Positions 95 to 63,275 are shown, counted from the whole stretch's first letter. The stretch: DNA of 63,275 nt, filler included, from Stramenopiles sp. TOSAG23-6 (GCA_900128565.1; 7 parts of 7 records of this genome joined end to end with filler, not necessarily neighbours in it), one strand, 5' to 3'. The notes: generated by a model not told the origin, from the sequence alone. A program made the numbers and translations.

Positions 95-1165
95 ATGGCT
101 AGAAAAAAAACACAAAAATCATCGAATGTGTCCAAAAGTTTAAAACGTGAGAAGACCAAAATGGAAGAAAACAAAACGATATTACAAGAAACATCTATTT
201 TACCAGAGGTAAGAATGTGCAATACTTCTAAACCAAATATATCAAGTATTATAGCAGATAAAAGTGAAAATGGATATTGTGATGTAAAGAATGAAGGTAG
301 CGATTATGAAGTAAAAAAGAATGTTAGTAATACTATTGAAACAAATATTATAGATGATATTGTACATACTAATAATACTATTGAAACAAATATTATAGAT
401 GAGATATCAAACGTAAGTAACATTGCTGTGAGAGATTTACCAAAATCTGTTCACTCTTCAATATCAAAAAAAATTAGACAGATGTTAAGAGAGAAAAAAA
501 TCAGACAAACCACATTGGCCAAAGAGTGGGGAATGTATGTTTTAATTGTTTTTTTCATACGAAATTTTGTACCTAAACAAAAATTAACAAAAATTCAAAT
601 TTTTTTTTTGAAATATTTTTATACAATACATGTTGAATAGTGTTGTCATATCACAATGGCTGGGTGGTAATATATTGACTCAGCATAACGTGGTAGTAGC
701 TGGTCAGAAATTGATCGTACGTTTTCAAACAAAATTGTTTCNTTTTTTTTTATATGAAATTTTGTACCTAACAAAACAAATTAAAAATGTTGGAAAAAAA
801 AATATTTTTAATAGTACAGGAATGGTATATACAAAATGGTGGTGATGTAACACTTGTACCAGAGAAATTGAAAGATGATTTGGAATCAAATGCGAATAAC
901 AAAAGGCTAAAAAAACGGAATGAAAATTCATCAAAAATACTAATGAAACAAGAAAATATTGTTTCAAAACAAGAAAATATTGTTTCAAAACAAGAAAATA
1001 TTGTTTCAAAACAAGAAAAGACTCTTTCAAAACAAGAAAATATTGTTTCAAAACAAGAAAATATTGTTTCATATAACTTTGATGAAGTCTATGAACATTT
1101 TCGCGTGATTCATACACGTGCTCGTCATAAAGCACAAATCAGTGTCACCGGTGCTGGTTTAGTAT
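95..1165 (+). CDS. Hypothetical protein with HTH-like segment (exons 95-534, 632-716, 820-~1165); 3' continuation uncertain
   Basis: Removing 535-631 and 717-819 joins three ORFs in frame, giving KKIRQTTLAKEWGMLNSVVISQWLGG (resembles a lambda-repressor-type HTH). Contains KQENIVS repeats. Confidence 0.5.
535..631 (+). mobile_element. Introner-like intron, GT...AT
   Basis: GGA AT|GTATGT...TACCTAAAC...AATACAT|G TTG; ATG duplicated at the junctions; frame restored. Confidence 0.8.
717..819 (+). mobile_element. Introner-like intron, GT...AG copy
   Basis: ATC|GTACGT...TACCTAAC...GTACAG|GAA; frame restored. Confidence 0.75.
946..1070 (+). repeat. 21-bp coding tandem repeat (KQENIVS)
   Basis: AAACAAGAAAATATTGTTTCA repeated about 6 times. 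Confidence 0.9.
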
Positions 1166-1255
1166 GTATGTTTTATTTTTTTTCCATTTCAATTTTTTTT
1201 CGTACGAAATGTTGTACCTAACAGTTTTTTTTTGAAATATTTTTCCAAAATACAT

Positions 1256-2101
1256 GTTCTGGGGACACAAGAAATTTTGCGATTGGCTGTGACAAATGGA
1301 TTATTCGAAACTCGAGTGAAACCTGTTTTTTATGTAAGTACTAATGGAATTTTCCCATATGGTACCGGGGAACGATTCAAAGAAGATTCAACACCAAGTG
1401 ATTATCATTTTTTCGATAATGGAAATCTTCGAGAGGATGTGGATGGATATGCAATTTCTAAATTTATTGCTGAAAATTTAACAAAACAAGCTCGAAGTCG
1501 AGGATTGCCTGTTACAATAGTCAGACCAGGTAATATGGCTGGTTGTTCTAAGACCGGTTCTTGGAATGAAACAGATTTCGTGTATAATTTACTATGTGGA
1601 TGTCTTTTACTTGGTGTTGTTCCGAGTGGCAATGAAGTTAAAAAATGGTTTTTTGATTTGACACCTGTAAATTTTGCTGCTGCTTCTATTATAAGCCTTA
1701 TTAAATATCCACAAAATTCTTTAGGTAGAGTTTTTCATATACAATCTCCACATCCTCATGTTGCAGCTACAAAGGTATTTACGTGGTTATGTAAAATTGG
1801 ATCATCAAAAGGATGGATTGTGCGAAGAAGTATGACAAATTCTAAGGCAACATCAATGAATGAAGTTTCACTTGATACATTCAAAACAATTTTGCAAAAA
1901 TCGGCGATGAATGAATTTGAACAAGTGGGAGAATCGAATGTAATTCAACGCTTGTTTGCAGGTTTTGATTCATTTATATACTATTTAAAATCACCACCTA
2001 TATTGGATTCCACCCAGTTACATCGTGAAGTGGATGGTAAAATTTCACCTTGTACAAAACTTGATGAAAACTTGTTGAAATTGTATATGCAAAACTCATG
2101 A
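1256..2101 (+). CDS. C-terminal part of a thioester reductase (NRPS/Lys2-type extended SDR) domain
   Basis: Motifs VLGTQEILRLA, YVST, GYAISKFIAE (YxxxK), IVRPG and DLTPVNFAA. The N-terminal Rossmann half is not found upstream. Confidence 0.8.
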   Translation, partial: VLGTQEILRLAVTNGLFETRVKPVFYVSTNGIFPYGTGERFKEDSTPSDYHFFDNGNLREDVDGYAISKFIAENLTKQARSRGLPVTIVRPGNMAGCSKTGSWNETDFVYNLLCGCLLLGVVPSGNEVKKWFFDLTPVNFAAASIISLIKYPQNSLGRVFHIQSPHPHVAATKVFTWLCKIGSSKGWIVRRSMTNSKATSMNEVSLDTFKTILQKSAMNEFEQVGESNVIQRLFAGFDSFIYYLKSPPILDSTQLHREVDGKISPCTKLDENLLKLYMQNS

Positions 2102-2345
2102 CTGTTTTCTTATCAACATTTGTACAAAAACTTGATGAAAACTTGATGAAATTGTATATACAAAACTCATGGGTGGTACATTTTTTCTATTATAAATGTT
2201 TCTTTTTGTAATATATAGTCGCAAAAACATTCTAATTATTTTTTGATAAAAAATTTTGTACTTTACATCACATGAATATGAAAACAAAAGTTTAATTTTA
2301 TATATGGACGGTTTAATTAAAACGTAATAGAAACTATTATTAATA

Positions 2346-3302
2346 CTACACATCATTATGGATACTACTTTCGTAAGTAGGTATGATATATTTAATGTTA
2401 ATGTAAGCATTATCCCCACCAGCCTTTTCAAAAATATCTAAAGTTTCTTCTATCAAAGCACAAAGAGTACCACCTTCACCTCTTTTATAACCAATTAAAT
2501 CTGTATCATCTTCTTTGTCTGAACCAAATGAATCAGTACATAAAACATTTGGGGCATTAACGAGGTAATAATTACATATTGGTAGAAGAAATTTATAATA
2601 TTGGACAAGTTCGATGTAGTACAAAAGAATATATCAAATATAAATTTGTTAGGTACAGAATTTCGTACCAAAACAAAAATGGAGTAGATACGAAACAAAA
2701 ATGCAGATAAACTAAAAATGATGAAAAAGTACATTCCTGCTTCTGGTGCGTTTGCTTTAACAAGCCACTGCAACACCTTTAACATTCGAGTGATTGATGC
2801 AGGTTCTTTAGTATCTAACACGCGTTTTGCTGGCATGATTAATTTAGGAAGAAGTTCTATTATTGTATCTTTATTCACAAATTCTAATAAACCTTGAAGA
2901 GAATTTTGTACCATGTTATGTGAAAAATATGATTTGATATTTGTTAGGTACAGAATTTCGTACCAAAAAAAAAAATTGAAATTCCCTAGTGACAACAAAC
3001 ATGAACGAAAAGGGCTCTTCAGTTTCTACAAGGCCATCAATAAACATCGGTAATAAATAAGGGATGTCTAAGTCTTCCATTTTGCAATCCCAAATGATTG
3101 TGCGTACACCACCTTCAAACGAAACACGAAGTGGCAACGTACTTCTCTGATACTCTCGGCGAAATTGAGTCTCAATCTTGACTACTTTCTTTTTTTTTCC
3201 ACTGCCAGACTTTGAACTCTTAGAAGGACTACGAGATATAGTTTTTGGACGCCTTGCACCTGCAGTACTTATAGACCTCGATGTTAATGCACCACTATTC
3301 AT
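2346..3302 (-). CDS. PACRG: Parkin co-regulated (axonemal) protein family; introns 2913-3000 and 2614-2732
   Basis: FRREYQRSTLP, LLPMFIDGLVETEEPFSFM, LVQYYKFLLPICN and GGDNAYINIKYIIPTYES. Both introns are GT...CAT. Confidence 0.8.
2614..2732 (-). mobile_element. Introner-like intron, GT...AT
   Basis: GGA AT|GTAC...TACAT|C GAA gives AGIELVQYY; only AT is duplicated. Confidence 0.8.
2913..3000 (-). mobile_element. Introner-like intron, GT...AT
   Basis: TTC AT|GTTTGT...AACAT|G GTA gives EEPFSFMVQNSLQGLL. Confidence 0.8.
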
Positions 3303-3558: not shown

Positions 3559-6055
3559 ATGCTGATGCAACTAAAAAAAACTAATATGTATTATAGTATT
3601 GTTACTTTTATATTTTGGGCTTTATATAGATCAGAAATAGTATTGGCAGCTTGCCCAAACAATTGTTCTAATCATGGACTATGTTCCAGTTCCAAATGCA
3701 CTTGCTTTCATGGTTTTACTGGAAGTGATTGTTCTAGAAGACATTGTAACGTTGGACGTGCGTGGTTTGATGTTGCTAGTGCAACAGATGTAGCACATCA
3801 AGATAATATTGAGTGTTCTGGAATGGGTTTCTGTGACCAAATGACTGGAATATGCCGATGCAGACCTGGTTTCTCTGGTTGGGCGTGTGAAAGAATGGAT
3901 TGTCCAAAAGATAAACAACATAGGGACTGTAACGGACATGGTACCTGCACTACGATGAGAGAAGCTGCTGAAGGTTTTGATGGCTATCGGTTAATAAACC
4001 CATCTACTACATATTCATTATGGGACGCAGATAAAATTATGGGTTGTATTTGTGATGAAGGTTGGTCTGGATATATATGTTTTCATTTTTAATTTCAATT
4101 TTTTTTTTGGTATTATTATTATTAGGGTATTCGGTATACCTAACGATTTTTTTTTCTACAATATTCTTTCACTATACATGATTGTGGTGAACGAAATTGT
4201 CCTTCTGGCGATGATCCTTTAACTACTACTGGTGTAGATGAAGTACAAACATTTCAGTGTGCTTGTACCAATTGCAATGAAGGAACATACCAATTTTTAT
4301 TTCGTGGATCTTCATCTAGTGCGATATCCTATAATGCAACACAAGCTGAAGTAGAAACTGCAATTGAAGCCATGAATACAATTGACTTTGTCACTCTTTC
4401 TTGGTCTATTGCTGGTGGTGCAATTGATTCTACATCACAAGTGTGTGGATCTGATAGTAGGACTCTTGCCATAACATTTAATTCTGAAAGTGGAGATATA
4501 CCAGATTTAATTGCAAATTCAGAATCTACTGATATCAGTCTAACAGTTACAGAAGATACAAAAGGAACAAAAGAAAATGCACCTTGTAATAATCGAGGAT
4601 TTTGTACCACAGATCGACTAAGTGAATACGGGGGTACATATATGTTTTATTTTTTTTTGCATTTCGAATGTATTCTTATTTTCATACGAAATTTTGTACC
4701 TAACAAAAAATAGTACAAAAACAAATATTTTTTCACAGTACATGCAATTGTGTTGATCTTGGTATCATTGCATTTTTATCTAGTAATGGTAAAGGTGAAC
4801 TTGGAAATAGAGGTGATTGTGGAGTAAGTAAGCCAGGAGTTACTATTGCCAATTGTCCTTTATCATCATTCACTACTACTGGTACTGATTTTTGTGCAGG
4901 ACATGGAGTCTGTGATTCAACTACAAAAGTTTGTACTTGTTACCCCGGCTGGAAAGGTCATAATTGTGAGTTACGCAAATGCCCTTTAGCAAAAGCTTGG
5001 TTTGATGAAGCTACTGGTGCTAACACTGCACATGCATTAGCAGAATGTGCAGCACGTGGGACGTGTGATGTACGTTTTCATCTCAATTTTTTGTTTAATT
5101 TTTTTTTCATACGAAATTTTGTACCTAATGAGTTTTTTTTTGAAATATTTTTTCATAATACATGCCGGGACAGGAAAATGTTCATGTCAGGATGGATTTG
5201 AAGGTGCAGATTGTTCTCGTTTGGCTTGTCCCATGTCTGCTTCTGGTATTTGTGGTGGTGTAGGTAGATGTATATCAATGAGAGACTTGGCATCTGCAAA
5301 TGGCAAAATATATGGTGCTACAGGAAGTGGTGATACTGTGTGGGATGCAGATATGATGTATGGTTGTAATTGTGATCAATATTCAGATAATTACAACACA
5401 TACGCAGTTGGTGGACGTTCAGGAGATGCTTCAGGTACTGGCCAAAACTTTTTTGGGTACAATTGTAGTCGACGCCAATGTCGTTCTGGCCCTCAATTAG
5501 CATGTAATGGTAGCCCTACAGATATGGAAGCCCAAACAATAGTTTGTTCATTAACAGCAGGTTCTTTCACTTTATCCTTTTCATCAATGACAACTTCAAG
5601 TATCTCTTTTGATGCAACAGCTGCTACATTGCGTACTGCATTAATTGAACTTTCAAATATTGGTGATGTAAATGTAACATTTTCAGCTGGAACTTCACTT
5701 TGTACATCAGGTGGAACAAATACAGTTACTATTGATTTTCTCACAGAATATGGAGATGTATGTTTTATTTTTTTTCAAATTCAATTTTTTTTTCATACGA
5801 AATTTTGTACCTAACAAATTTTTTTTTAAATATTTTTCCAAAATACATGTAGCAGAATTTACCTCATCAAGCGGCAGTGTAATTGTGGATGAATCTACAA
5901 AAGGAACTCGTACAATAGAGGAATGTTCAGGTAATGGATATTGTAACTATAAAACTGGATTATGCCAATGCAATAAAGACTATGGTAGTAGTGACGGGAA
6001 TGCAGGACAAGGGAAATTGGGCGATTGTAGTTATCGAAATATGTTATTAGAATAA
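3559..6055 (+). CDS. Secreted EGF-like/tenascin-like cysteine-rich protein; introns 4075-4179, 4640-4743, 5070-5163, 5758-5848
   Basis: Signal peptide, CPNNCSNHGLC, ECSGMGFCD..TG.C.C, WDADKIMGCICD and CPSGDDP motifs; all four removals keep frame and Cys spacing. Confidence 0.85.
4075..4179 (+). mobile_element. Introner-like intron, AT...AT
   Basis: GGA TAT|ATATGT...TATACAT|GAT TGT gives GWSGYDCGERNCPSGDDP. Confidence 0.8.
4640..4743 (+). mobile_element. Introner-like intron, AT...AT
   Basis: ACA T|ATATGT...GTACAT|GC AAT TGT gives GTCNC. Confidence 0.8.
5070..5163 (+). mobile_element. Introner-like intron, GT...AT
   Basis: TGT GAT|GTACGT...AATACAT|GCC GGG ACA gives GTCDAGTGKCSC. Confidence 0.85.
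5758..5848 (+). mobile_element. Introner-like intron, GT...AT (near-consensus copy)
   Basis: GAT|GTATGT...CATACGAAATTTTGTACCTAAC...AAATATTTTTCCAAAATACAT|GTA. Confidence 0.85.
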
Positions 6056-6946: not shown

Positions 6947-7876
6947 TTAATATCTTCCTCCTCCGCCTCCATCACGTCCACCATCATTGTAGCCACCGCG
7001 GTCTTGACGATCATATGATCTGTCATCCCTTCCTCCAGATCTGTCATCTCTTCCTCCAGATCTGTCATCTCTTCCATATCTGTCATCCCTTCCTCCATAT
7101 CTGTCATCCCGATCTCTTCCACGTCTGTCATCATATCTGTCATAATCACGATCTCTTCCATAATCGCGATCACGTCCTCTGTAACCTCAAGTAATGTGAT
7201 AAAATATTTCATGAAAAAAATCTGTTAGGTATAACATTCTCTATGAAAAAAAAAAAAAAGTGTAAGGTCAAAAAAAAAAACATACCGCCACCACCACGAT
7301 AGCCGCCACCACCGCCGCCGCGATAGCCACCACCACCTCGAGGGGGACCACCAAAACCTGGATCTTCATCGCATCCTCCAGTGACTTGTTCAGCCCGGTA
7401 TTTACCCTTGCGTTCATCGAATATTTTTACAAATTCAACTTGAGCTCCTTCCTTGAGGCATGTATTATGAAAAATATTTCAAAAAAAATCGTTAGGTACA
7501 AAATTTCCTACGAAAAAAATAAATTCGAAATTCATGATGAAAACGTACATCTGCCATCTTCAATGCAGGAGAAGTGACAAAAGACATCTTCTCCACCAGC
7601 ATCAGGGGCAATGAACCCAAAACCACGACGGTTCCAACGCTGAGCAACACCTTTGACGCGTTCCTGACCACCGCCTTGCCCATTCATGGCACCACGATCG
7701 TCCTGAGCACGATCACCAGTGCGACCTCTGGAACGAGAACGGGATCTGGATCTGGAACGGGAACGAGACCTGGAGCGTTTGTCTCGTGCTCCATTTACTG
7801 GAGCAGTTTCCTTCTCCAATTTTTTAGCCGCATTGCGCGGGCTACGTCTTGGGCTGTTGGCTGGACTTGCTGACAT
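6947..7876 (-). CDS. Cold-shock domain RNA-binding protein with RS and RGG/RD-rich regions; introns 7460-7548 and 7186-7285
   Basis: KGVAQRWNRRGFGFIAPDAGGEDVFCHFS; after splicing DGRCLKEGAQVEF...KYRAEQVTGG. Confidence 0.9.
7460..7548 (-). mobile_element. Introner-like intron, GT...AT
   Basis: AGA T|GTACGT...AATACAT|GC CTC AAG GAA GGA completes the cold-shock domain. Confidence 0.85.
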
Positions 7877-12219: not shown

Positions 12220-12881
12220 ATATGCTGATAACTAAAAGGAGTGGGTGTATCTACAATTCTTCCCATTCCAGCTGCAGCATTTAAAATACTTTTTGTTTCA
12301 TCAAAAATTTTCATATTAAATATAACACAATCAGTTTCACTTTGTTTTCCTCTCAGTGAAATTTTAGTCACAATGTATTGTAGAAAAATATTTCAAAAAA
12401 AAATAAAAATTGTTAGGTACAAAATTTCGTACGAAAAAAAAATTTTAAAAAATTTAAAAAAAAAAAATAATAAAACATACATATTAATTAATTCTTGTAT
12501 AACAATTCCAGGTCTAAAACTTGGTGAATACGGTTCTAAATAATCAATTTCAGATTCTCTCATCATCACTTTAATCGGGGGCATTCCTACAGGATCTTCA
12601 GCAAATTGCCGACTTCCTTTTTTAAACATTTTTGTTTTTTTTGTTTTACCTGCAGATATTACTGTTTTACCTTCATGAATGCATGGACATTTTGGAGGTG
12701 GGCTATGATCAATTGCAAACTGAGGTGGAGGAGAACGAGATTCACGGATAGATTGACGAATAAGTCCAAATGTGACATTTATCATTCGACAGATATTTAA
12801 CGCATCAGCAGCCATGGAATGACTATCTTTACCTCCAGCAACTTCATATTGTTTAATATATACACCCAATAATATCATCAT
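12220..12881 (-). CDS. Bestrophin-like (bacterial/UPF0187 type) fragment; intron 12373-12480
   Basis: GMGRIVDTPTPFSYQH matches the RIxxTPxPFxY motif; N-terminal part not seen, C-terminus cut by the gap. Confidence 0.6.
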
Positions 12882-15095: not shown

Positions 15096-18000
15096 ATGAG
15101 TTATATGCTGAGAGAAAACCATAATAACCAGTCATCTTCTCCTTCGCCTTTTTCACAAAGTCCCAGGTCGAAGCGCAGCAGTACACCGTCAAATGATTCC
15201 ACAACGCCCTCTGATTCCCCTGACATGGTCCAGTCTGATAGTCCAGATTCTGGAAGAGTTTCCACTGAAAGTTTTGTTGCAGATTTGCAGGAAAGAGGAC
15301 CGACTGAAGTTTTTCGTACTGCGAATGCTTCACAGAGAGCCATCTCCCGAAAAACAACAAGACTGATGTTAAGCGAACACCCAAAGAAACGACCACTGGT
15401 AAATATTCTTTCCAAAATGAAACAATTAATGGAAAAAGATGACCCAAATAAGGACCAGTGGATTTGTCATTCTTGTTTATATGAACATAATAGAAACGAC
15501 CGGTATGAGTGTCTTCTATGTGGAACCCATCGTTTGAAAAAACGACCAATAGAAGGATTTGGCTTTTCTCGTTTTAAATCAATATCAAATGATACACGTG
15601 CTGTAGCAAAATTTAATAAATCTGGTGATAAACACAATTTTATTAAAGTCACTCGGAAATTAGATGAAGCTCAAAATGTAAAGCAGGGAGAATTCGATCA
15701 GTATTCTACACCAGTGTACGTTTGATATGAATTTCTAATTTATTTTTTTTTCATACGAAATTTCGTACCGCATGCCAGCTAAGCAAACAGTAGAACAATT
15801 ACTTGAGATAGCAAAAAATAAAGTGGAAGAGATATCAATTGCTTTGGAAAAAAGCAAATATAAAAACAAAGAATTTATGTTACAAAATAAAATAAAATGG
15901 GAAAAACGTGCAAATATGGATAAAGAAACTCTTCAATTATACATGAAAAAGAAACATAAATATATTTGGAAATGGTATAAAAAAGAAGCCCAAAAACCAA
16001 TTCAGGATAAATATGGCAGATTTCCATTATTTTGGCGAGGTTTGGCCCAATGGAAACCTTGGTGGGAGGTCGATGATTTATATTGTACATATCTTATAAA
16101 ATTGGAAACAATGGAGAGTGAATTTGAGGATTTAAAACAATGGTATGTTTTATTTTTTTTCAAATTCGTTTTTTTTTTCGTACGAAATTTCGTACCTAAC
16201 GATTTTTTTTTGAAATATTTTTCCAAAATAGGTATCACCAACCAGGGCCAGCAAAAGACCAAATGCGTAAATTACATGGTGAATTTCCAGAGTTCTGGGA
16301 AGATCTCGAAGATTGGCAACCTTTCGATGATGTATATCAAGAATATAGTTTATTGATGAAATCAATATCAGTGGTTCTTCCATCTATGTGTACGTTTTTT
16401 TTTTTTTTCAATTTTGAATTTTTTTTTCGTACGAAATTTTGTACGTAACATTTTTTTTTTTTTTTGAAATATTTTTTCACAATACGTGTGCATGGTATTA
16501 CAGACCTAACCACAAAGGCAATGTCCCCGCTGAATTAAGATCTTCCCAAACGAATAAAATATTTGGAAAATTTCCATATGATGCAAATGATGCTGCAGCT
16601 TTATATGGACTTGCTGCAATAGATGAAGTGAACCATAATCGTAAAGCTATTATCATTAAAAAATATACAAATATTCGAAATAAGACAAAAATTCAGAATG
16701 AAGCTGCAAAAACAATCCAATGTCATATACGAGGATTTGTTTGTCGCAAAACTATCTGTAATGAAGATGATAGAGGTTGTGATGTTGATGAAAATAAAGA
16801 TGATAAAGGTTGTGATGTTGATGAAAATAAAGATGATAAAGGTTGTGATGTTAATGAAAATAATAAAGGTGCTAAAGATGATACATGTGATGATATAATC
16901 ACTGAAGAAAATGATAACAGTTGTGATAAAAATGCTAAAGATGATGCAAGTGATGATATAATCACTGACAAAAGTATAAAGTCCGACAATATAAAAGAAC
17001 AAAATGGAGAATACCACATTAATGAAATTTTATTTGATTTAGGACCAAACGCATCCAAGGCTGTGGTTCTCTATTGGAAATATTTTGATGAAGTAATTGA
17101 GAGATATAAACATTACCTCAAGTGGTCAGCTCCAGTAGATGAATCTGATATTCTTGAGCTATTAGTGTATACAAAACAAGATAATAGTGATATAAATAAT
17201 GTAAATGATAATTTAAGCAGTGATGATTCATCATTAGATAGTGAAAACTCGAGTGATGAATCAGAGCATGAAACAACAAAAGAGACTTTACCAGAGAAAA
17301 AAGATATAAGAATGAGTATGTTCAAACAAAAGTCTATTTCTGTTGGCGCAAAAGCTTTGAGTGGCGAATCTGCATTAGCAAATATTGTTAATCAACAGCT
17401 TGATTTAGCTTCAGTTGCAAAAACACCACCAGAAAAACGATCAACAGATGCGTTAGTTATTTTAGCAAACTTTTTGAAATCAAGTTTATCTAAGACTAAA
17501 TTGATTCTACAAAAGCTTCAAGAGCAACATGCATGGATTCAAATTGCACGAATTGTAGAGTGTAAAAGCTATCACCGAGGTGAAGTTGTATTTACTGTTC
17601 CACAAGAAGAAGACGGATACTTTATAATTGTTCGTGGACAAGCAGGACTGTGTACGGAACGTAATTTAGATAAGACAGAAAATATGTCCCCAAGAGAAGA
17701 AGAAGGTGCAATGTTTTATGATGAGCATAATGGTGATGAAGTTGGATATAATGATATAATAGCTAACAAATTTGAAGTTTTGCAAGAGTTTGGTGTAGGC
17801 ACATCAATTGATCATAGTAGCGCATGGCAGTCATGGACGGGTAGAGCAAATAGTTTTGTATCTTTAACTGACGATACATTGATTACGTTTATTGAGGGTA
17901 AAAAGCTTTTGCGAATATTTCAAGAACAAAATGATATTCTTGAAAAAGAAATATCAAGTATAAAAACGAGACAGAATACGGAAATTTCAACTTCAAGGTT

Positions 18001-34378: not shown

Positions 34379-34477
34379 ATGAATTTTGGAAAAATATTTC
34401 AAAAAAATCTAAAAAAATTGTTAGGTACAAAATTTCGTATGAAAAATAAATTCATAGAAAAAAAAAAAAAAACATAC

Positions 34478-46060: not shown

Positions 46061-48182
46061 CTACTTCCATCGTGGTTTTACCCCTACTATATTTGGTGGC
46101 CTCCAAGATTGAATAATTGATGTATCATTTGATGAACTTTGACTACGCCGTACATGAGCATTATCTATCATATTTGTTTCATCCATCAATGAAATTTGCC
46201 ACCAACCACCATATAAGTCATGTTTCCTTGCTACATGTATAGATGCAGAGTCAATACCATCATACTGGGATTTTTTTCTTGTATTTCTATATAAATTTAA
46301 TAAACCTCGCGCCTGCATTAGTTGCTTGACACAAACAATTACGAGTGCTCGCAATGTAGCTCGTCTTCGAATAGATATTTCAAGAGAATGTTGTATTTCA
46401 ATTATAAAATCATTCTCATTTCGTAGAGTATCATTAGAATGTACATCAAAAGAATCTACTTTTTGAGATCTCCAAACTTCTGTTTTTGATTCAATTTGAG
46501 CTAGGTTTCTGGGAGATATATATTTAGATCCACATGAAATGATCCATTTACGAAATGCAGATCCTAATTTTTCCGTATATGTGAGTATTATTAACTTCCG
46601 TGCAATATTTTGTAATCTTGCCAGTTCCGTAACTTCCAAATATAACTTTTGAAATGCTCCACTGAGCTTTTTATGACAAGCGTATCTTATCCACTTCATT
46701 GCCTTAAGTTCTACCAGATTTACGCGAATTGTGATAGAACGCCATCGAGAAAATGAATAATGTTTTCGCGAATGTTGCATACGTCTTACACACCTTTTTG
46801 AAAGTTCCCGGGCACGTAGTAGAGTTTTCGTTGATCTTTGCCAAGTACGAAATGCATATAGTAATTGTAAGTTACACATTATTCGAACTTTACTAATGAG
46901 ATGCTTTCTTACGTCTGCTTCTCTGAAAGCTACTAGCAACCAGCGCTGAAAAGCTTGACTTTTCAGCCTGTGAATCATTTGACAAAGGCAACGCCGTGTA
47001 AGTATATTTTGTTTATGCTGATGTAAAAGTTCCATGAAAACAGTTTTGCGCCACTGTTGAAAACTTTTGTTTATCTGTTTAGAGAAATATCGTTGCATCA
47101 AAAATTCTAACTTTGTTAAACCATCTTTTTTAATATTCATCATATGTTTTTTAATATATATCATATGAACAGCATTTTTCCATGTTGAGAATGCAGCATA
47201 TACTGTGTTTGCTTGGAATCGTCGAAGAACTGTTCGTTTCACACGAAGTTTTCTATCTTTAATCAATATTGCGTACATATTCATTTCTCGGTCTTCCACG
47301 TATTGTGAAAAAATATTTCAAAAAAAATCAAATTTTTTTTGTTAGGTACAAAATTTACTACGAAAAAAAAACTTCGAAATTGAAAAAAAAAATAAAACGT
47401 ACACTTCTGCTAGCTCCGTTTGAAGTGAAGATTTCATTTTTCTCATATGATAAATAACTGCATTGTGCCATTGATGGAACCAACGACCTAAATATGCATG
47501 GAAAATTCGAAGAATTGTTGCGTGCATCACCTTTGTTGCTAAAGTTGTGCCTCTATCATTTGCCTTTTGTATTGCAGATGTAGCTGAAGAGATATTCACA
47601 TTATGCCGCCATTTCCAGTACGCGTAACATAAGCTATGAGTTCTCCAACGAGTAGACCAGCTATTTAATATTGTGTATACAGATTGCGTTTTTCTTTTTG
47701 ATTCATTTTGTTCAAATTCCACATGAGATCTTGTTAATGAGATAAAGTATGACCATGTGCGCCAAGCTTGAAATAAACGAAAATATTTTCCATTATACGA
47801 TACTGTGTGAAATAGTCGCAATGCATCGCGTTTCTTTTTTTCTACACAAGTTGCTTTATATACTCTTGTTTTCCATTTTTTCCATGATAATTGAAGTGTT
47901 GAATATTTCCATGAAAGAATAGCCCTCTCAAACACTTTTAGTGACGTCACTACATCATTTTCATGTTTTACAACATTTTGTCCTATAGAAAAAGTGACCA
48001 AACGCCAATGATTGAATGCAAGATTCTCACGCCTTTTTAGTAATCGAAGAAGAATACCAACAACAGATTTTGTCTTCCAGGAAACTTCTCTCCTATTTTG
48101 TTCAGATTGTAGAGAAAATTCACGCCAAATTGACCAGGCTCGAGATAATGCAGTATAATTTATATATCGGAGAACTAGTGTC
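46061..48182 (-). CDS. Second Sfi1-like F/W-repeat helical protein (5' partial); intron 47298-47402
   Basis: Repeats such as AAFSTW, KSFQQW, QAFQRW and YAFRTW. Confidence 0.55.
47298..47402 (-). mobile_element. Introner-like intron, GT...GT
   Basis: GAA GT|GTACGT...AATACGT|G GAA. Confidence 0.75.
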
Positions 48183-48342: not shown

Positions 48343-48443
48343 GAAAAATATTTCAAAAAAAAAAAACTAAAATTTGTTAGGTACAAAATTTCGTACGAAA
48401 CAAAAAACGATTTTTTTTTGTAAAAAAAAAAAATAAAACATAC

Positions 48444-51046
48444 ATACACTGCCTTCATTGATACAATTATCACAAGTTTTGTTGCAACCTGTCTTTTGAA
48501 ATTTTTCTTCAAAATGCTTTAAAAGAAGTTGGCGTCGGCAAATGACGTCATTTTCACAATATTGTAACATTTGCTTTAATTGATCCATTTGTCGTCGGAT
48601 TTCACTTGGTTGTGCTGTCTCGCTTTTATTAATTAAAAATTCGTGAAGTTTTTTGTCTCCATAATTATAAAAAAGAATACATTCGGCTTTGCGCCCGTCC
48701 CTCCCTGCTCGTCCAGATTCCTGATAATAGCCTATTATAGATTTTGGCATAGAAAAATGAACTACGTATCTTACATCAGGTTTATTAATACCCATTCCAA
48801 AAGCAATAGTGGCAACAATCACTTTACATCTATCTTTTGACCAACGCTCATATATTTTGGAAAAATATTTCAAAAGAAAAAACTAAAATTTGTTAGGTAA
48901 AAATTTTCAAAAAAAAAAAAAAAAATTAAAAAATTAAAGATACATGTTTCTCTCTTCTAAGTTGTTTGTCTTCTATACCCGCATGATACCATTCTACTGA
49001 ATTTTCAAGTTTTGTACCTTTCAATGCTTCAAGAAGACCTTGTGCAACATCTTCCACCGCTTTCCGAGTTCCTGCGTACACAATACCTGACTCATTTGGA
49101 TATCGCAAACAAATCTTTGCAATTTCTTTTAAGGTTGTTTTTTTCCCTTTTTTGAGAAACACATCATATGTTAAATTCGGTCGATTAAAACTAGTTGAAA
49201 ATTGTCGAGGATTTCGCATACAGAGATTTTTCTTGACATCTTCTTGAACAGCTTTCGTTGCAGTTGCTGTTAAGGCCATTAATGGAACATCTGGAAAAGT
49301 TTGTTTCAGACAGTTTAAACGCATATAGTCTGGTCTATAATCATGACCCCATTGAGAGACACAATGAGCTTCATCAACAACAAACATGCTCAAGAGACCT
49401 CGACTATTCAGTCGCTCAAATTGTTGCATCAAACTACTACTTGCAGCAATTTTTTCAGGTGTTACATACAAAACTTTTAATTCATTACGAGCAACTTGGC
49501 CCCAGATTCGACTTGACTCCTCAAACTCCATTGCACTATTTAGCGTGTTTGCTGCAATGTCATTTTGTTGTAGATCCATCACCTGATCCTGCATCAATGC
49601 AAGCAAAGGAGATATTACTATGGTCAAACCTGGGAGTAAAACAGCTGGCAACTGGTAGCATAGACTCTTTCCTCCACCAGTTGGCATTAATACAAAAAGA
49701 TCGTGTCCTTCTAGTGCTAATTTTACTACTTTTTCTTGTACTAAACGAAAGCGATCATGACCAAATTTGTTTTTCAATTCACGTCGAATTTCAATATCAC
49801 TATAACTTTTTCTATTACTCATGCTACTTCTAGAAATTTCATAATTGTTGTTGTAGTCATTATTTGTATTATTGTATTGATTTCCATTCTGATAGTTATT
49901 GTTGTAGTCATTATTTGTATTATTGTATTGATTACAAGAAGAGTTGCTACAATCGCTTATATTCCGACTCAGATCAATCACATCATCACATTTTTTCATA
50001 TTCGTATTATTATTTTGATTAAAACTATTTTCATCATCAAAACTATTTATACGATCGAGCCTAGTTGAGTGATTACAGTTAGACATTTTAGAATCCGTAT
50101 CATTCTTATTGTTTGTCATGTTTTTTTTATATGTTTTTTTACAATCCGTATCATTAGGGTTAGGGTTATTGTTTGTCATGTTTTTTTTATATGTTTTTCT
50201 CTCTTTTTTAAGTAGACTTCTTCGTTCTGTGAGATTTTTAATACGAACATGCAGCATTTTTCCACGTTTTGTTTCTTGTTCTTCGAAAGTCATTTCATCC
50301 CATGTATCTTCCGCGTCAAGTAAGTTTCCAGATACTTGATCGTATGTATTTTAGAAAAATATTTGAGAAAAAAATTTGAAAAATTTGTTAGGTACAAAAT
50401 TTCGTATGAAAAAAAAATTCGAGTTTTTTTTTCCGAAAAAAAAAATAAAACATATACTCTCGTTGTATGTCTTGAAATGACTTTCCAGGTAACCCTAACC
50501 CTACATTTATTGTGCCTACTGTTGTTTCTAGTTGCATTGAAGAATTTGGATTCATAGTATTATCTCTATTTTGATTGAAATTGTTACATTGGTTGTTTTG
50601 ACTTTTAGTAGTAGTTTTTGATAAAGCAAACTCTTTGTATGCGCATTCTGGAATATGTATTTTGGAAAAATATATTTGTATTATTTTTGTAGAAAAAAAA
50701 TCGTTAGGTACAAAATTTACTATGAAAAAAAATTTGAAATTTGAAAAAAATAAAACATACATCCTCCTCAATAGTCATTTGTGGGATATTTTCCGATTTC
50801 TGAGACAACTGCTTTTCTTTATATGTTGCGGCCTCTACTTTGTCCATTTCCTCCATAATATCTCCGTAATCTTCATCATAATCAGAAAACAAATCATCTT
50901 CGTCTTCTTCCACATTATGAATTGTTGGTTTTTTATCATTTGTTTTGTTTAAAGAATATCCAATCGTAGTAGTAAGTTGTGTAGGTTTCGTGTTATTGAA
51001 TTGTTGTGTAGGTTTCGTGTTATTGAATTGTAGAGATACCTTTTTC

Positions 51047-52011: not shown

Positions 52012-54382
52012 ATGAATACCCAAGATGGTCTATATCCAAATGCAGGATACCCACGATCATTTCCTCAACATCGGGAAGATAGTGAAACACTAATATCTTC
52101 CCCGCCTGGCGTATTTTTCTATAGTAATCAATATTCACCGAACTCAAAAGACTCTTCTTGGTTTGAGTTTGAGGAGACCCGCCGTTTGAAAGTGTCAAAA
52201 TCAGAGTGGGAACATAGAATGAGAACATGTGGTTCGATGAAAACACATGAAACAGACTTGAATAATTCTGACTGGAGTATGGATTTGCGGAAGACTATTT
52301 TAGATTACTTAACGGTACGTGGTTGGGGTAAAGCAGCTGCAGCATTTTATAGAGAATCTGCCTTCGAGGAGGTCAAAGCAGTGAATAATTTTGAAACGTC
52401 TATTGTAGAAAATTCACCGGGGGTAATACGCAGGCGAATAAAGTATGCAATTGAATCTGGAAAGGTGCTACATGCAATAGAAGAAATCTCAGAATATTTT
52501 CCTAATGTTTTGACAGATTGTAAGTTATCATTTTTATTGCACAACCAGCAACTTATAGAACTAGTTCGTGAAGGCAATGTTAAAGATGCTCTAAAATATG
52601 CTAGTGAGCATCAACCGGAACTTGGTTTAAGGACATTAGACAATAACTCTATAGAAATAAGTGATAGAAAAAATGGGGAGGATAAAGTTGTAAGTGCTGA
52701 GTCATATGATAATAATTGTAGTAAGAAATTTTCTAAAAGTGAAAATGAAAGTAAAGATAGTACTATAATTGCAACAGAAAACTTTGATGGAATTAATAGT
52801 GAAAATAAACAGCAATTAAATGGAGCAAATACAAAAAATCAACAGAATGGACATATATCAAATAAAACAAATAAAACAAATGAAACAAATGAAACAAATG
52901 AAACAAATGAAATAAAAGAGAGAAAACAGTCATCCAAAGAAATAAAAGAGAGAAAACAGTTATCCAAAGAAGTTCAAGAATCAACACGAAATCCTGAGTT
53001 TCTAACAATGCTCAATGAAACAATGGGACTTATTGCATTTCGAGATCCTACAAAATCTCCTTCTCACAAGTTATTAGAGCAGTCTCAAAGAAATGTTGTT
53101 TCAAATGCATTCGACTTTGCAATGAGACAATATATCCCGGGTACCTTTCCATCATGAATTTTAGATATAGTTTTTCGTATNTTTTTTTTTTTTCTAACGA
53201 TTTTTTTTTGAAATATTTTTTCACAATATTGGGACTCCTCGAATAGAACATCTACTGAGACAAATTGGCTGGTGGCAAATTGAACTTGCAAAGTCTCACG
53301 AATGTCCTAAAGTTGAGATGACAAAAACTGGATTGACAACAGTGAACTTAATATCAAAGTTGCCAAATAGAGCATCTATGCCAAGTGTACTTCCAACTCC
53401 TCATCAAAGGAATGGGTTTTTCAATCAACAGGTGACCCCAGATTTTAACTCGCGTATTCGAAATCGCATTTTTCGTAATCATTCAAGAAGAACAAACACG
53501 AGTTCAACACAAACAACAAATGTAAGACAAAACACAAATCGTTATAGAGTGGAATCTTCAGTCAATTTATTACGATCTATGAGACGTAGACGTAGTCCTT
53601 TCATTAGCAGGAACCCACGTCATAGTAGTAGTCCAAATGATATTGAAAGCACTAGTCAGCCGGTCCGTCTTCAATTAGAATCGCGAGAAGGGCACAGATA
53701 TTTAATAAGCACCGGAACAAATACAATTCGCGGAAATGATAGTACAAATAGCGACGATTATGATGCATATTCATCATCAAATTATGAAAGNTCTGGATAT
53801 AGCTCTCCAAGTAATAGAATGCGTCATCGATTTTATCAAAATACCAATAATAATAATGAAGTAAGCCCTTTCAATAGGTCTTCACTCTCTCATGCCCAAA
53901 CAACATCTAATTTGTTTGAACCCAATGATTTAGAACCAAATATGAATCTTGGAAGAATCAGTTCTCAGAATGAGGTCGTTGGTGATAATACTAATACTAA
54001 TACTAATACTAATAATGAAATCATTAATCAGCAGGTTAGTAGGAATGATAGTGGTTTGGATAATTGGGGCAGATATAATATTGAATCTCACCGGACAAGG
54101 CGACAAAGATCGTTTGGTAGAACTCGGTCTGCGCAACAAGTAATCAATCCATTTTCCAATTCTAGTAGGAATGCTTTTGCATACGAAACTGTTGATACAT
54201 CTTTGCAAACTCTTCGAGCACCACAATATGCTGCTCGAGCTGGAGCACGAATCTGGGCACGAGCGCACCAGGGACATCAAGGCGTTGCGAGTGACTATGA
54301 AAATGTGGTAAATAGTGATTTATTTTCCAATCAAACTCACGAAATAGCAAATAATGAGCTCGAGGTTGACGATCAAAATTAG
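52012..54382 (+). CDS. LisH/CTLH/CRA-domain protein (GID8-like); intron 53141-53231
   Basis: ILDYLTVRGWGKAAAAFYRES, RRRIKYAIESG, FLLHNQQLIELVREG, MGLIAF and PRIEHLLRQ. Confidence 0.75.
53141..53231 (+). mobile_element. Introner-like intron, GT...TG
   Basis: CCG G|GTACCT...CACAATATTG|GG ACT CCT CGA; frame restored at the consensus end position. Confidence 0.65.
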
Positions 54383-55595: not shown

Positions 55596-55756
55596 ATGCT
55601 TTCCAATAAGAAAATGTTATGAATTTAAAATCACACGAAAATAAATTTGCATTTTACTTTAAATACGAGAAGGTCATTACCACAAGTTCCCGATGTTTCA
55701 GTATATGCACCAAATGCTATGACACCAGTAAAGTACAAAAGTTTACTAGGATGTGG

Positions 55757-57919: not shown

Positions 57920-59323
57920 ATGGTAGGTGTACGATTGGCGGGCCTGATACTAATAGTTAATCTCATATTATCGATGGCAAGAAGACATCTTAGAAAAGAT
58001 AAAAGAGTGAAGAACAAACCCGTTGACCTTTTAGTTCAAAAATATCACGACGTTCAGCAGTCGGCAGATACTGCCAAGAAAGCCGCAGAAGGAGAATCAG
58101 TAAACGCAGGAGACGTATCTATCAATTTGTTCAAAGACAAAATTAAAAGATCTGGTGATAATGAAAGTTCAAATTTACTGCGTTTTGCACGCACTGGAGC
58201 CCAAGTATATCCAACTATGGCAGGGGGGAACGCAAAAAATATCTATTCTCTGGGGAGTTCTTATGGACGAGGTCCGCTGGATTCGAATTCGGCGGGGTAT
58301 GGTTCTTTCTACAACCATAGATATGGACCAATTGGTGGCCCTCCATTGTAATTATCAATCCAATCACATACTTTGTGTTTATCCATTCATTTGACTATTT
58401 TATTTTCATAACCTGTCTCTTTTCATTTGTGCTTTAATATTGGGTTTCTCTCTCACAATTCACAATTGTTTGTCTACATTCACACAAAAAAGACCTGGAG
58501 GAGCTCGTGGTGGATTTCCAGTTTGGGTAGATCCTAGAGGCTTTGCAATGGATTACAATACAACACGAGGTACACAAGATTTTATGGGTCTGAACGGTGA
58601 TGTTCACGGAAACGTCGGAGGAATGGGTGGTATGGGAATGATGGGAGGAATGGGTGGAATGGCAGGAATGGGTTTGGGAATGGGTCTCCTTGGCTATGGC
58701 ACTCAGATGTTACCAGGAAAAGCTTTCCCATCAAGGACGACTGGGTTCAACTTGGCTATGAGCGGCCCTCTAGGAATGCCACCGTTTACCGGGAGACCAG
58801 TAAAAGCTTTGGGTCCTTTTGGTCCTTTTACAGAAGAAAGTGAGGAAGAAAGAGTTGGTAAATCCCAAACAGTTTTTATGGGTCCTTTACCGTTCGGTCC
58901 ATATGGTGGAAATCCAGTGGCACCAATGGGTATGGGTATGGGTATGAATGGTATGGGTATGGGCATGAATGGTATGATGAATGGTATGGGTGTTGGTGCT
59001 ATGCCAGGACTTACTGGACCTGGTATTTCACCTAGTGTTAATCCATATACTGCGTTGCACCATGTATGTTTAATGTTTTGAATTTCGAATTTATTTTTTT
59101 TTTCGTACGAAATTTTGTACCTAACAAATTTTACAAAAAAAAAAATTCCACAACACATGCGGTGACACTTGGTCCAGGTTTTGTTCCTCCTGGACTAATT
59201 CCACAAGCTCATTTACAGACTGATTATCCTCACCCGTCATCAGATAGATATGGCACTGTTGTTGAAAAGCCAGTCCCACCACCAAGCACAGGAGGTGAAG
59301 CAAGAAGTGAAGCCGCGGGGTAG
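57920..59323 (+). CDS. Hypothetical secreted Gly/Met/Pro-rich protein; ordinary GT-AG intron 58348-58492 and element intron 59064-59158
   Basis: N-terminal hydrophobic segment; three ORFs join in frame. Confidence 0.6.
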
Positions 59324-60367: not shown

Positions 60368-60422
<55 letters not shown>

Positions 60423-61771
60423 GCGTTCTTCTACAGTAACGTCACCTTCCTCAAGGACAAATACGATTTCTCCGATTCAACCATACTCTGGGCAAACAAC
60501 GGTATATGGAGGAACACAACAACATACATCTCAAATGAGACAAAGAGGTTACTCTTCTCAATACGATTCAGTGGAAAGAAGTTCTCAACCACATCATCAT
60601 TATTATAACAATTCTTCAGCAGGGGAGAGACTTATAGCAAGAACAGAAGCCTTGAATACAAATTTAACTTTGAAAACAAGTTTGTCCCAATCTAACCCCA
60701 AAGCTACCCTTTCCAATTATTTTAATAGACACGAAGGATATCCTACTATAACTGATGTACGATCATCAAGTACTGGTATACAAAAAACACAACAAAATAT
60801 GCAACAAAATCAAAATATATGCACAAAGGACTATTTCAGTCATCCTAGCTTAAACCCTAACCCTACTCCCTTGACAAGAAAGGATTATTTTACTCCAACG
60901 TTGACAACAACAAATTCAACAGAGGATTATTTTAGTAATAATAATAATACTAAACAATATTCAAATAATACTCATCTCAGTCCAATGATGTGGTCAAATC
61001 GACAACCATATCGTCATCTGCCTCCGGACCGTCAACCGCTACAACAGTCTTCAATTCCACTACATCATACTTCATATTCCCCTAACCCTAATCACACACA
61101 GCAATTTAATACACGTCAACAATTCAACCAACAACAATTATATAACCAACAACAATTATATAACCCAGTTCATATGTCTACTATAAGTAATATTACTAGT
61201 CCACGTATTCAACAACAATACAACCAAAAACACCAAATGAGCCAAATTAATAAAAAATTGAATCAGAATTTGAATCAGAATTTGAATCAGAATTTGAATC
61301 AGGAGCGAATGTATCAAAATAATGAAATGTATAAAAATAATTCAAGTCATACACAAGCAATTCACAATCCCAGTACAAATATTCATTATTCCAATATGCG
61401 GCAAGAAATAATCAGTGAATTTGGTGAAGAAGACGTTAATTATGGTACGTTTTTTTTTTAGAATTTTTTTTTTTTGGTTTTCGTACGAAATATCGTACCT
61501 AACGAAATTTTTATGACTAACAAAAAAAAAAAAAAATATTTTTTCACAAACAGCTGTGGATATTTTATCCAAATTTGATGGTGACATTGCTGCTGCTGCA
61601 CGATCTTTACAACATGGGGATATAATTGGATTTGATGATGACGTCACTTATAAAAGTGCTTTGCCTACCAATCAGGCATCTTCTACTTCAAATAATCATA
61701 CATCGAACCCTAACCCTAATAATAATTCAAATACTAATTTTGAAACAACTGTATATGATGATAATAATAAT
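60368..61771 (+). CDS. Gln/Asn-rich protein fragment with UBA-like segment; intron 61445-61553 (GT-AG element copy)
   Basis: After splicing EFGEEDVNYAVDILSKFDGDIAAAARSL; CAA microsatellite at the contig start. Confidence 0.5.
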
Positions 61772-61871
61772 NNNNNNNNNNNNNNNNNNNNNNNNNNNNN
61801 NNNNNNNNNNNNNNNTTAATTAATTAANNNNNNNNNNNNNNNNNNNNNNNNNNNNNNNNNNNNNNNNNNNN
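61772..61871. other. Artificial contig linker
   Basis: N-TTAATTAATTAA-N. Confidence 0.95.
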
Positions 61872-61965
61872 TTTTTTTTTTTTTTGTAAAATTTGTTAGG
61901 TACGAAATTTCGTATGAAAAAAAATTATAAATATATTTTTTTTTTTAATCCTATATAGTATGTAC

Positions 61966-63275
61966 ATATGAGCTCGCTTCAAGTCATGTAAACTTTTTAC
62001 GTATTTTTTACTACGCGTACGTGGAGTTGATTGAAACATAATTTTGATTTCTCTACCTAATTTTTGTGTGTTTGAATTTTTGTTTTTTGTACTTAATTTT
62101 TGTGTGTTTGAATTTTGTAACTGTAAACACTCTTTCAACTCAATCGCACAAATTTTATTCTCATATAAAGTTACCTGGTACTGTGCATGTATATTTTTGA
62201 AATATGCAATACATGTATTTACTTTTGTTAGATAAAAAAGTGAACTACAAACAAAATAGTTACACAATATATAAATGTTCTATAAAAAAAATATTTAAAA
62301 AAAAAAAAATCGAAATTGAAAAAAAAAAAATTGAAATGAGTAATACAATAATAATGGTAAAATACATGACGGATATTTTCATCAAGGATAGGCAAATGAT
62401 TACTCTTGGTATTTTTTATCAAATGACTCATGTTATTATACTGTTTATCTATAGAATGATTTTCGGACATTTTCTCTAGTGTCTCGATTTCTTGCAGTGC
62501 AACTAATTTTGCTATTTCTTGTTGTCGTCTATTTAATGTGAACGATATATATATATATATATTTGTTAGGTACAAAATTTCGTATAAAAAAAAAAATAAA
62601 AAAAAATAAAAATAAAAAAAATAACTTATCTTTCTCAATTTTTGTAACTCTTTTTTCTGTAACGCTGACAAACATCTCTTCATTGGATTAGGGTTAGGGT
62701 TCTTCATTGGGTTTGGGCTACTTTGTGTACTATCCTGTAGACCATGTATTTTGGAAAAATATTTCAAAAAAAAATTTTAAAATTTGTTAGGTACGAAATT
62801 TCGTACGAAAAAAAAAATCGAATTTGAAAAAAAATAAAACATACATGTATATCATTCTGTTCTTTGTGTTGATTCATTTCATCAGAATTATCTTTTGTAT
62901 TGGAATGATAAATACTTGACTCAATTGTTCCATGATGTTTGCTAATCGAATGCACTCCTGTAACATTACTTTCTTTAGTGTTATGTTCAATATTATGTAA
63001 AGCTTTGTTGATTTTATGAACTTCTGCCTCAACGGCATGTTCAATATTATGTTCAATATTATGTATTTCATTCATAGCTTTATGAGCTTCTGCTGCAACA
63101 GCATGTTCAATATTTTGTAAGTCATTCTTAAGTTTATGAGCTTCTGCTCCAACGGCATGTTTAATATTATGTTCAATATTATTTAACTCATTATTGATTT
63201 TATGTGCTTCTGCTCCAACAGCATGTTCAATATTATGTTCAGTATTATGTATTTCATTCTTAAGTTTATGAGCTT
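61966..63275 (-). CDS. Hypothetical protein fragment with His-rich NIEHAVxAEAHK repeats; introns 62744-62844, 62531-62629, 62187-62365
   Basis: The frame is continuous after removing the element copies. Confidence 0.45.

Follow-up and report, generated by a model that had tools for sequence, protein, structure and literature searches.

The window analysed here is a stretch of 63,275 bases in which seven pieces of DNA (five of about 12 kb and two of 1.4 kb; 62,731 non-N bases, GC about 33%) are joined by N spacers. Regarding its genes, Pfam domains bear out all the hosts named in the initial annotation, namely Melibiase_2 (GH27), CSD (cold shock), DEAD/RecQ, Epimerase/SDR, EGF, Nuf2, PseudoU_synth_1 (Pus1) and ParcG (PACRG), and add BRO1-ALIX-UBA, ENTH, CTLH, RCC1 and Fibrinogen_C to the list. 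The protein-coding exons are interrupted about once per kb by copies of one element family. These inserts are probably spliceosomal introns derived from a single introner family resembling miniature inverted-repeat transposable elements (MITEs), and most of them end in AT.

The family was approached from a starting pattern, a branch-like box followed by AATAYAT, which gave 28 mostly clearly related matches. An nhmmer profile built from 18 seed copies of the window yielded, at a cut-off of E<=0.01, 62 matches (61 non-overlapping) across all seven pieces, nine of which are cut by piece ends and four of which have no resolvable ends. The initial annotation had placed about 70 related inserts on all seven pieces; a single family is indeed present on every piece, and only the number was slightly high. 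The introns measure 58-140 nucleotides (nt), with a median of 103 nt and a GC content of 18.6%, and the consensus of 52 aligned introns contains three conserved blocks: the 5' end, GTATGTTTT; a central block composed of a T-run and then CGTACGAAATTTYGTACCTAAC; and the 3' end, GAAATATTTTTYCAMAATACAT. The central block includes a perfect 16-nt palindrome, GTACGAAATTTCGTAC (e.g., 62783-62798, minus strand), directly 5' of a CTAAC box; it matches no known splicing signal, forms a 6-bp hairpin in five of eight folded copies, and could be a transposase site or a presenter of the branch point. Pairwise identity has a median of 0.70 and reaches at least 0.90 in 18 of 1323 pairs, with the copies lying in unrelated genes. 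Many near-identical copies together with a conserved block that is no splicing signal therefore indicate common descent and not merely shared splice signals; many similar introns in unrelated genes is also a feature of introners.

A crude orientation test based on stop-free runs on both strands called 55 of the 62 matches sense, six antisense and one ambiguous. Five of the six antisense calls concern either the cold-shock gene, in its Gly-rich tail, or the Fibrinogen_C gene, whose exons are short; in these genes Pfam domains occur in the sense direction only and restoration of open reading frames (ORFs) also favours sense, and the sixth sits at a piece end. Apart from this one piece-end copy and the ambiguous one, the sense orientation noted at the outset holds, and none of the 62 matches is clearly antisense to any gene. 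In metagenome contigs the element core was found at eight loci, with a full copy only in contig L005 (2475-2578, minus strand), where it lies in another gene, is 91% identical to 32963-33065 and has the junction acat/GT...ACAT/g (a slash marks a splice boundary). The core was also found at six loci in viral contigs, none of them a full copy, and no autonomous partner element or empty site was found. The density of copies is uneven: the 870-residue BRO1-V-UBA gene (8243-10852) is intron-free, and about 6 kb at 51900-58300 hold one (unreconciled) copy, as against seven copies in 31318-36171. Lone N bases lie inside copies at 742, 26062, 26072, 32082, 32090 and 53181. All of them fall within or beside T-runs, a hint that homopolymers were hard to base-call.

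Both ends were assigned for 52 introns, 46 from the family alignment (5' end at GTAYGT or ATATGT; 3' end after YAY, YAG or CGT), five by eye, and 42813-42943 as given in the initial annotation. Profile matches overlap 49 of them; of the remaining three, two are GT..AT and one (30245-30350) is plain GT..AG. Counted in the family register, the terminal pairs are GT..AT in 33, GT..AG in nine, AT..AT in four, GT..GT and GT..AC in two each, and GA..AT and AT..AC in one each. The 3' dinucleotide is thus AT in 38, AG in nine, AC in three and GT in two, in agreement with the early impression that most inserts end in AT and only about ten in AG. The last three bases are CAT (31), TAT (6), CAG (6), TAG (3), CGT (2), CAC (2), AAT (1) and TAC (1), so that the final triplet is YAY in 40 introns and YAG in nine, and A occupies position -2 in 50 of 52. 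At the 5' end, the first dinucleotide is GT in 46, AT in five, GA in one and AG in none (+1 base: G in 47, A in five); GTATGT (21), GTACGT (16) and ATATGT (5) account for all but ten of the hexamers, with C at +4 in 21, G at +5 in 45 (C in two) and T at +6 in all 52. CTAAC is present in 39 of the 52 on the sense strand versus one on the antisense strand, at 31-51 nt from the 3' end, and CTAAT or CTAAG occurs in four more; the fuller form of this box is ACCTAAC, and the element also contains a T-rich tract. Boundaries described at first as mostly GT...AT are therefore accurate for the majority, but some copies start with ATATGT, as RNA shows for 45123-45218.

In most copies the boundary can slide by 1-3 nt because the exon end and the intron end repeat each other. 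Family members ending in ACAG (e.g., 24712-24819) or ATAG share alignment columns with those ending in ACAT or ATAT, and the AG copies 717-819 and 25210-25313 permit no slide. These observations place the 5' cut directly before GTAYGT, and the shared columns make GT..AT the natural register. An AT..AC reading is permitted in four of the five copies with a 5' A and is possible for that group, and both GT..GT copies are equally readable as GT..AC; the true share of ...AC ends may thus be higher than counted. An AT..AC register for the whole family, possible in every xAT/GT...AC/AT copy, was rejected since the RNA at 44696-44791 keeps a G where AT..AC needs an A.

Removal of the inserts restores the host genes. 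For each of the 46 aligned copies, the longest stop-free frame was chosen independently upstream and downstream; the stop-free span is itself unusable for boundary finding, as the T-runs are stop-free. After removal, the two frames were in register in 42 of 46 copies against an expected one third (P=3e-16), and in silico removal of 47 introns restored ORFs of 1429 residues over two introns, 1367 over seven, 841 over three (RecQ), 703 over four (EGF-rich), 495 over four (GH27) and 436 over four (SDR), in keeping with the initial claim that excision rebuilds conserved motifs. Three PACRG exons are collinear with solved PACRG chains with a slack of 1-3 residues at both junctions, a margin within which the exact sites cannot be fixed from the structures. 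Intron phases 0, 1 and 2 occur 23, 12 and 17 times, and many copies follow a His codon CAT in phase 0 (e.g., 32160, 34684, 41238 and 48944); such a spread is expected if the target is CAT/G and not a codon position.

Direct evidence for removal comes from seawater metatranscriptomes. Three runs share 6-7% of the sampled words of 38300-48200, and their contigs were compared over 36300-48242, where stretches without contig cover carry no meaning. X1 is a polyA run, and X2 and X3 have the library type "other". An X1 contig of 263 nt (record 4) covers 44645-44694, 44791-44925 and 45028-45105 without mismatch and joins across the GH27 inserts 44696-44791 (44694>44791, slide 2) and 44928-45029 (44925>45028, slide 3), the latter being one of the two inserts for which an RNA check had been proposed. 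A second X1 contig of 164 nt (record 5) joins across 45123-45218 (45120>45217, slide 2). All three GH27 inserts covered by X1 are therefore missing from its polyA RNA contigs, with joints exactly where the DNA had predicted them, which sustains the central proposal of a high-copy, sense-oriented introner-like family removed with a non-AG 3' end. The slides permit the readings TG..CA, GT..AT or TA..TG for 44696-44791, AT..AC through TA..TG for 44928-45029, and AT..AC, TA..CA or AT..AT for 45123-45218. AT..AC is incompatible with the first junction and a cut after ...CATG with the third, which leaves a 3' cut following ...ACA or ...ACAT as the only reading in agreement with all three. The RNA also fixes the 5' site of 45123-45218 as ATATGT at 45123, not the GT four bases on, and two of the three verified introns had an in-frame GT/GC..AG option within 30 nt that was left unused. 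In X2 and X3, summed depth over element sequence in 36300-48242 is about 900-2400 versus 3-5 on exons; this may reflect many genomic copies, excised introns or DNA, and it is uninterpretable because the words are common to many copies and DNA is possibly present.

The exon ends suggest how the element chooses its sites. In the 43 non-AG introns the exon-end logo is A(22) C(20) A(33) T(41) / G(27). Among all 52, exons end in AT in 33 cases (background 9.7%) and in CAT in 17 (background 2%); YAY lies just upstream of the 5' site in 22 (CAT 17 and TAT 5), and AAT or GAT in 11 more. The last exon base equals the last intron base in 45 of 52, compared with 33.3 in shuffles, and none of 2000 shuffles reached 45; at position -2 the agreement is weak (38 of 52 versus 34.9, reached by 36 of 2000 shuffles). 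Pairings with the own exon include exon GT with ...CGT (twice), exon AC with ...CAC and exon G with ...AG. These data fit a 1-2 bp target duplication together with a liking for sites like C-AT-G. Junction repeats of up to 8 nt, at 32706-32822, 34590-34683 and 62744-62844, are unexplained beyond site preference.

Taken together, the inserts are best regarded, with fairly good confidence, as spliceosomal introns from one MITE-like introner family; spliceosomal removal is preferred because GTAYGT, a branch-like CTAAC box and a T-rich tract are all present in the element. Each copy would supply its own 5' site (GTATGT or GTACGT, sometimes ATATGT), the branch-like ACCTAAC and the T-rich tract. The 3' cut would fall after a Y-A-Y triplet, usually CAT; the A at -2 is retained, and T takes the place of G as the last base. 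The signals at the 5' end accord with the major (U2-type) spliceosome, which would then have to tolerate U or C as the last base when it recognizes the 3' site. The element appears to favour ACAT/G sites, and the last 1-2 exon bases recur at the intron end in the manner of a short target-site duplication, so that part of the 3' splice site would be taken from the target. As for the machinery, which according to the initial annotation might be an altered spliceosome or a dedicated excision route, an Rfam scan of the window gave no match at all and hence no small nuclear RNA (snRNA), a tRNA scan gave nothing, no splicing factor gene was found within the window, and no lariat was seen.

The public gene model of the RecQ gene bears on both the host lineage and the splice sites. 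The sole close labelled match of a RecQ exon is protein P0004, with a source label of MAST-3 type (stramenopile), and tblastn identified P0004 as a model of the window's own RecQ gene (48343-50350, minus strand), identical wherever aligned. Because of this label, the host looks like a MAST-3-like marine stramenopile, not a tunicate. The nearest Atlas cluster of the BRO1-V-UBA protein is mostly diatom, which serves as a lead only, and a search with the BRO1 protein returned three distant matches that are uninformative on lineage. P0004 lacks four exon stretches, one of them a conserved helicase stretch after the Walker A motif that is kept in the homologue P0008; its acceptor is the next AG, 3 nt past 48850; and its protein tail is the translated element copy 48343-48443, which other copies of the window match. 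With a conserved helicase stretch deleted and an element translated, P0004 is a poor guide to splicing.

Several observations weigh against the reading of the inserts as introns with non-AG ends. Four of the 46 copies are out of register in their first-choice sites; a site 2-4 nt away restores the register of 1162-1255, 34375-34477 and 42204-42308, and a tied frame that of 26021-26153. The ends of one further copy, 53141-53231, could not be reconciled with the frames. An in-frame, stop-free GT/GC..AG pair lies within 30 nt for 30 of the 43 non-AG introns (none for the other 13), and for those 30 ORF logic alone is no proof of the AT site. The RecQ intron 48850-48943 is a case in point: an AG 3 nt downstream is equally in frame and gives a protein one residue shorter, and although P0008 has the extra residue, the restored REKHERW motif, which the initial annotation had listed among the rebuilt ones, does not settle the site. 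The RNA support covers three junctions on two contigs, at a depth of about 5, from one run and among the 15 joints listed of 45. The X2 and X3 contigs (records 10 and 22) run from an exon into 42813-42943, which points to unspliced RNA (pre-mRNA) or DNA in those libraries. Finally, the excess of junction repeats is confined to -1 and, weakly, -2, the outer matches being shared consensus, so that a true target-site duplication is unproven.

The strongest alternative, which we nevertheless consider unlikely, is removal by the minor (U12-type) spliceosome: an introner with U12-like signals would have multiplied minor introns, and the loose 3' end would reflect the known tolerance of that machinery. 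The G or A at +1 followed by TA, and the 3' ends AT, AC and AG, would suit it. The U12 5' motif [G/A]TATCCTT is not matched, given the G at +5 in 45 of 52, the T at +6 in all 52 and also the C at +4 in 21. GTATGT and GTACGT are the classical U2-type 5' sites of budding yeast. Among Physarum U12-type introns, GT-AT (17%) and AT-AT (8%) are among the commonest non-canonical pairs (10.1101/2020.10.12.336362; here and below, statements on published systems follow the accessible portions of the sources). The resemblance extends to G or A at +1 and to a large gain in one protist lineage, but the 5' motif and the branch spacing differ: the box of the window lies 31-51 nt from the 3' end, compared with 9-12 nt in Physarum (10.1101/2020.10.12.336362). 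Minor introns and snRNAs are reported in non-ochrophyte stramenopiles such as Blastocystis and oomycetes, and CCTAAC resembles the CCTTAAC branch box reported there; the U12-type branch box in general form is TTCCTTRAC, positioned near the 3' end.

Rather improbable is a non-spliceosomal removal guided by paired inverted ends, as proposed for euglenid nonconventional introns and some Amoebophrya introners. The element ends ATGTAT and ATACAT are 6-nt inverted repeats; exon AT plus GTAT can pair with ATAC plus AT, which would place the cut sites 2 bp apart on a short helix, and the exon -3 C (20 of 43) and the +1 G of the second exon (27 of 43) would lengthen the stem. This terminal stem appears in the minimum-energy fold of four of eight copies, but the folds are weak (-5 to -17 kcal/mol; z +0.45 to -2.5), and GTACGT copies break the stem without compensation. 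AC/AC junction repeats are unable to pair, which implies that identity and not complementarity is kept at the junctions. End pairing also leaves the strong strand-specific GTAYGT, CTAAC and T-tract unexplained and sits poorly with the nine plain GT..AG introns. Absence of splicing at AT altogether, with RNA transcribed from insert-free DNA (programmed elimination or insert-free alleles) or spliced at nearby canonical GT..AG sites, would accord with the inability of the contigs to separate RNA-level from DNA-level removal, with the in-frame canonical alternatives and with the site used by P0004 at 48850, but it is very improbable, because sense-only orientation and splicing signals are unexpected under DNA elimination, a cell whose housekeeping genes bear an insert roughly every kb could not live unless these were removed, all three RNA junctions are non-AG ones and refute canonical-site use for the GH27 gene, 13 introns have no canonical alternative, and P0004 is unreliable.

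Non-canonical introns of Fritillariid larvacean tunicates were reportedly described by Henriet et al. in 2019. In Fritillaria, a YAY triplet closes the intron and often precedes the 5' site, introns end most frequently in AT (44% in F. pellucida and 34% in F. borealis), and the U2 spliceosome removes the introns, the U2AF subunits being duplicated (Soo et al. 2026, PMC13326754). A review ascribes the 3' site to the duplicated exonic TAC of a MITE (PMC11282704). Accordingly, the remark in the initial annotation that the consensus was not recognized from a described system is only partly right, since the layout YAY/...YAY/, with AT as the commonest 3' end, has been described in Fritillariid tunicates (PMC13326754), and the pairs GT-AT and AT-AT have been recorded for introns of the minor spliceosome (10.1101/2020.10.12.336362). 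The window shares with Fritillaria a mass departure from AG, AT as the commonest 3' end, the terminal YAY and the T-rich tract, and probably also MITE-like insertion and removal by the U2-type spliceosome. It differs in its 5' ends, which are GT in 46 of 52 and never AG, in contrast to the main classes AG/AC and AG/AT of F. borealis; in its single dominant family with strong GTAYGT and CTAAC; in having YAY exon ends in only 22 of 52 introns; and in its stramenopile-like, non-chordate host. A larvacean origin was weighed after this comparison and dropped on the MAST-3-type label of P0004 and the diatom-leaning BRO1-V-UBA cluster.

Introner elements with terminal inverted repeats and target-site duplications were reportedly described by Huff et al. 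in 2016. Introner families bring one splice site with them and obtain the second, in whole or in part, from the duplicated target; in the Chrysochromulina type the 5' site is the one carried and the 3' site the one co-opted (Gozashti et al. 2022, PMC9860276). The window family is like the introners of Micromonas, Aureococcus, Symbiodinium and Chrysochromulina in comprising short non-autonomous elements in many genes with one site carried. Unlike those introners, which form GY..AG introns, its co-opted end is AT, AC or GT, so that the host must splice non-AG ends, and its junction repeat is only 1-2 nt; introner surveys, in the portions consulted, treat AG and AC as the expected 3' ends. More than 60% of Amoebophrya introns are non-canonical, with terminal inverted repeats and 3-5 nt direct repeats across the boundaries that make the exact cut ambiguous, and they belong to many families, among which no dinucleotide pair predominates; clear signals at the 5' site or the branch point are not reported in the accessible text (Farhat et al. 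2021, PMC7789003). The marine protist host, the inverted intron ends and the ambiguous cut position recur here, but in the window a single pair (GT..AT) predominates, together with strong classical signals. Euglenid nonconventional introns, which have stable pairing between their ends and lack a pyrimidine tract and conserved 5' or branch signals, differ in that the window folds are weak and a T-rich tract, GTAYGT and CTAAC are present. Ciliate-type internal eliminated sequences, which are excised from DNA, are bounded by TA and show no strand preference, differ in that the window copies are sense-only with bounds AT/GT...AT/, not TA...TA.

The literature searched, which did not extend to supplements, yielded no account of introns with non-AG ends in MAST or any other heterotrophic stramenopiles, and two papers on single-cell genomes of such lineages mention introns only in passing in their accessible parts. 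As far as searched, the kind of system is thus known, and the combination of a stramenopile host, GT with AT, and a single strong-signal family is new. A wider proposal, for which we hold the odds to be even, is that a free-living marine stramenopile independently re-tooled its major spliceosome for a final U or C, and that one introner family (GTAYGT, branch box, ...ACA(T)) seeded most genes with GT..AT introns, giving a second, protist and cleaner origin of the Fritillaria-type YAY 3' site. In a bolder variant, a co-evolved minor spliceosome may splice the family, which, if true, would be the first known case of a transposon multiplying U12-type introns.

Two side observations concern other parts of the window. 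In a PAH (Sin3-like) gene, two long ORFs overlap in different frames at 12856-12887 (minus strand) with no intron-like insert between them; an indel in the assembly might account for this, as might an intron of very small size. At 22650-24136 there are long tandem repeats with periods of 12-69 nt, including 45 nt x 5.6 at 23885-24136; the minus strand reads as an Ala/Lys/Glu-rich repeat protein, and both strands are open, which accounts for the strong AT skew of this region.

Table 1. Introns and further element copies in window coordinates; entries are family introns unless the remark says otherwise, and termini are given in the family register.
Position	Strand	Termini	Remark
535..631	+	GT..AT	
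717..819	+	GT..AG	no slide
1162..1255	+		5' site uncertain (1166 breaks frame)
2614..2732	-	GT..AT	PACRG
2913..3000	-	GT..AT	PACRG
4075..4179	+	AT..AT	2-nt slide: AT..AC; EGF gene
4640..4743	+	AT..AT	slide: AT..AC
5070..5163	+	GT..AT	
5758..5848	+	GT..AT	
7179..7285	-	GT..AG	cold-shock gene tail
7460..7548	-	GT..AT	within cold-shock domain
12373..12480	-	GT..AT	
15716..15773	+	GT..AT	3'-truncated copy, 58 nt, without CTAAC box
16143..16231	+	GT..AG	
16390..16487	+	GT..GT	2-nt slide: GT..AC
21093..21210	+	GT..AT	Nuf2
21346..21452	+	GA..AT	6-nt junction repeat permits GT..AC
21725..21825	+	GT..AT	
24712..24819	+	GT..AG	ACAG in place of ACAT
24932..25071	+	GT..AT	diverged, no profile match; Fibrinogen_C gene
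25210..25313	+	GT..AG	exon end AT, no slide
25387..25485	+	GT..AT	
25596..25701	+	GT..AT	
25827..25938	+	GT..AT	
26021..26153	+	GT..AG	
30245..30350	+	GT..AG	non-family intron, with GTATGT and ACTAAG
30543..30636	+	GT..AT	
32062..32159	-	GT..AT	
32340..32450	-	GT..AT	
32706..32822	-	GT..AT	junction repeat 7-8 nt
32963..33065	-	GT..AT	
33553..33679	-	GT..AT	
34375..34477	-	GT..AC	3' site by frame only
34590..34683	-	GT..AT	
38037..38129	-	GT..AT	Pus1-like gene
38267..38365	-	GT..AG	Pus1-like gene
41239..41337	+	GT..AT	
42204..42308	-	AT..AC	3' site by frame
42632..42723	-	GT..AT	SDR gene
42813..42943	-	GT..AT	diverged, no profile match; partly retained in X2/X3 contigs
43154..43245	-	GT..AC	exon end AC
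44696..44791	+		GH27; AT..AC excluded; absent from polyA RNA contig
44928..45029	+	GT..AT	GH27; absent from RNA contig that also spans 44696..44791
45123..45218	+	AT..AT or AT..AC	GH27; absent from second RNA contig
45357..45453	+	GT..AT	GH27
47298..47402	-	GT..GT	slide: GT..AC
48343..48443	-		copy cut by piece end; protein tail in P0004
48850..48943	-	GT..AT	RecQ; P0004 uses in-frame AG 3 nt downstream
50344..50455	-	AT..AT	GT..AC gives same protein
50655..50760	-	GT..AT	
53141..53231	+		family copy, ends not reconciled with frames
59064..59158	+	GT..AT	
61445..61553	+	GT..AG	
62744..62844	-	GT..AT	

There is as yet no settled explanation for the AG at the end of nearly every intron, and natural large-scale breakers of this rule are few, having been described mainly in some tunicates and parasitic dinoflagellates. 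The system in the window is unusually tidy, with one family, canonical 5' and branch signals and, for the most part, only the last intron base off the rule, and the ACAG and ACAT members side by side in the same genes form an internal control. What is needed for reading A-U as against A-G could emerge if the snRNAs, the U2AF small subunit, Prp8, Slu7 and Prp18 were compared with their counterparts in relatives. Gene finders restricted to GT..AG would break most genes of such genomes, as P0004 exemplifies. In view of errors of the P0004 type (a lost helicase stretch, a shifted acceptor and a translated element), the numbers of genes and completeness scores given for this lineage, and claims that it has lost genes or contains pseudogenes, may need re-checking.

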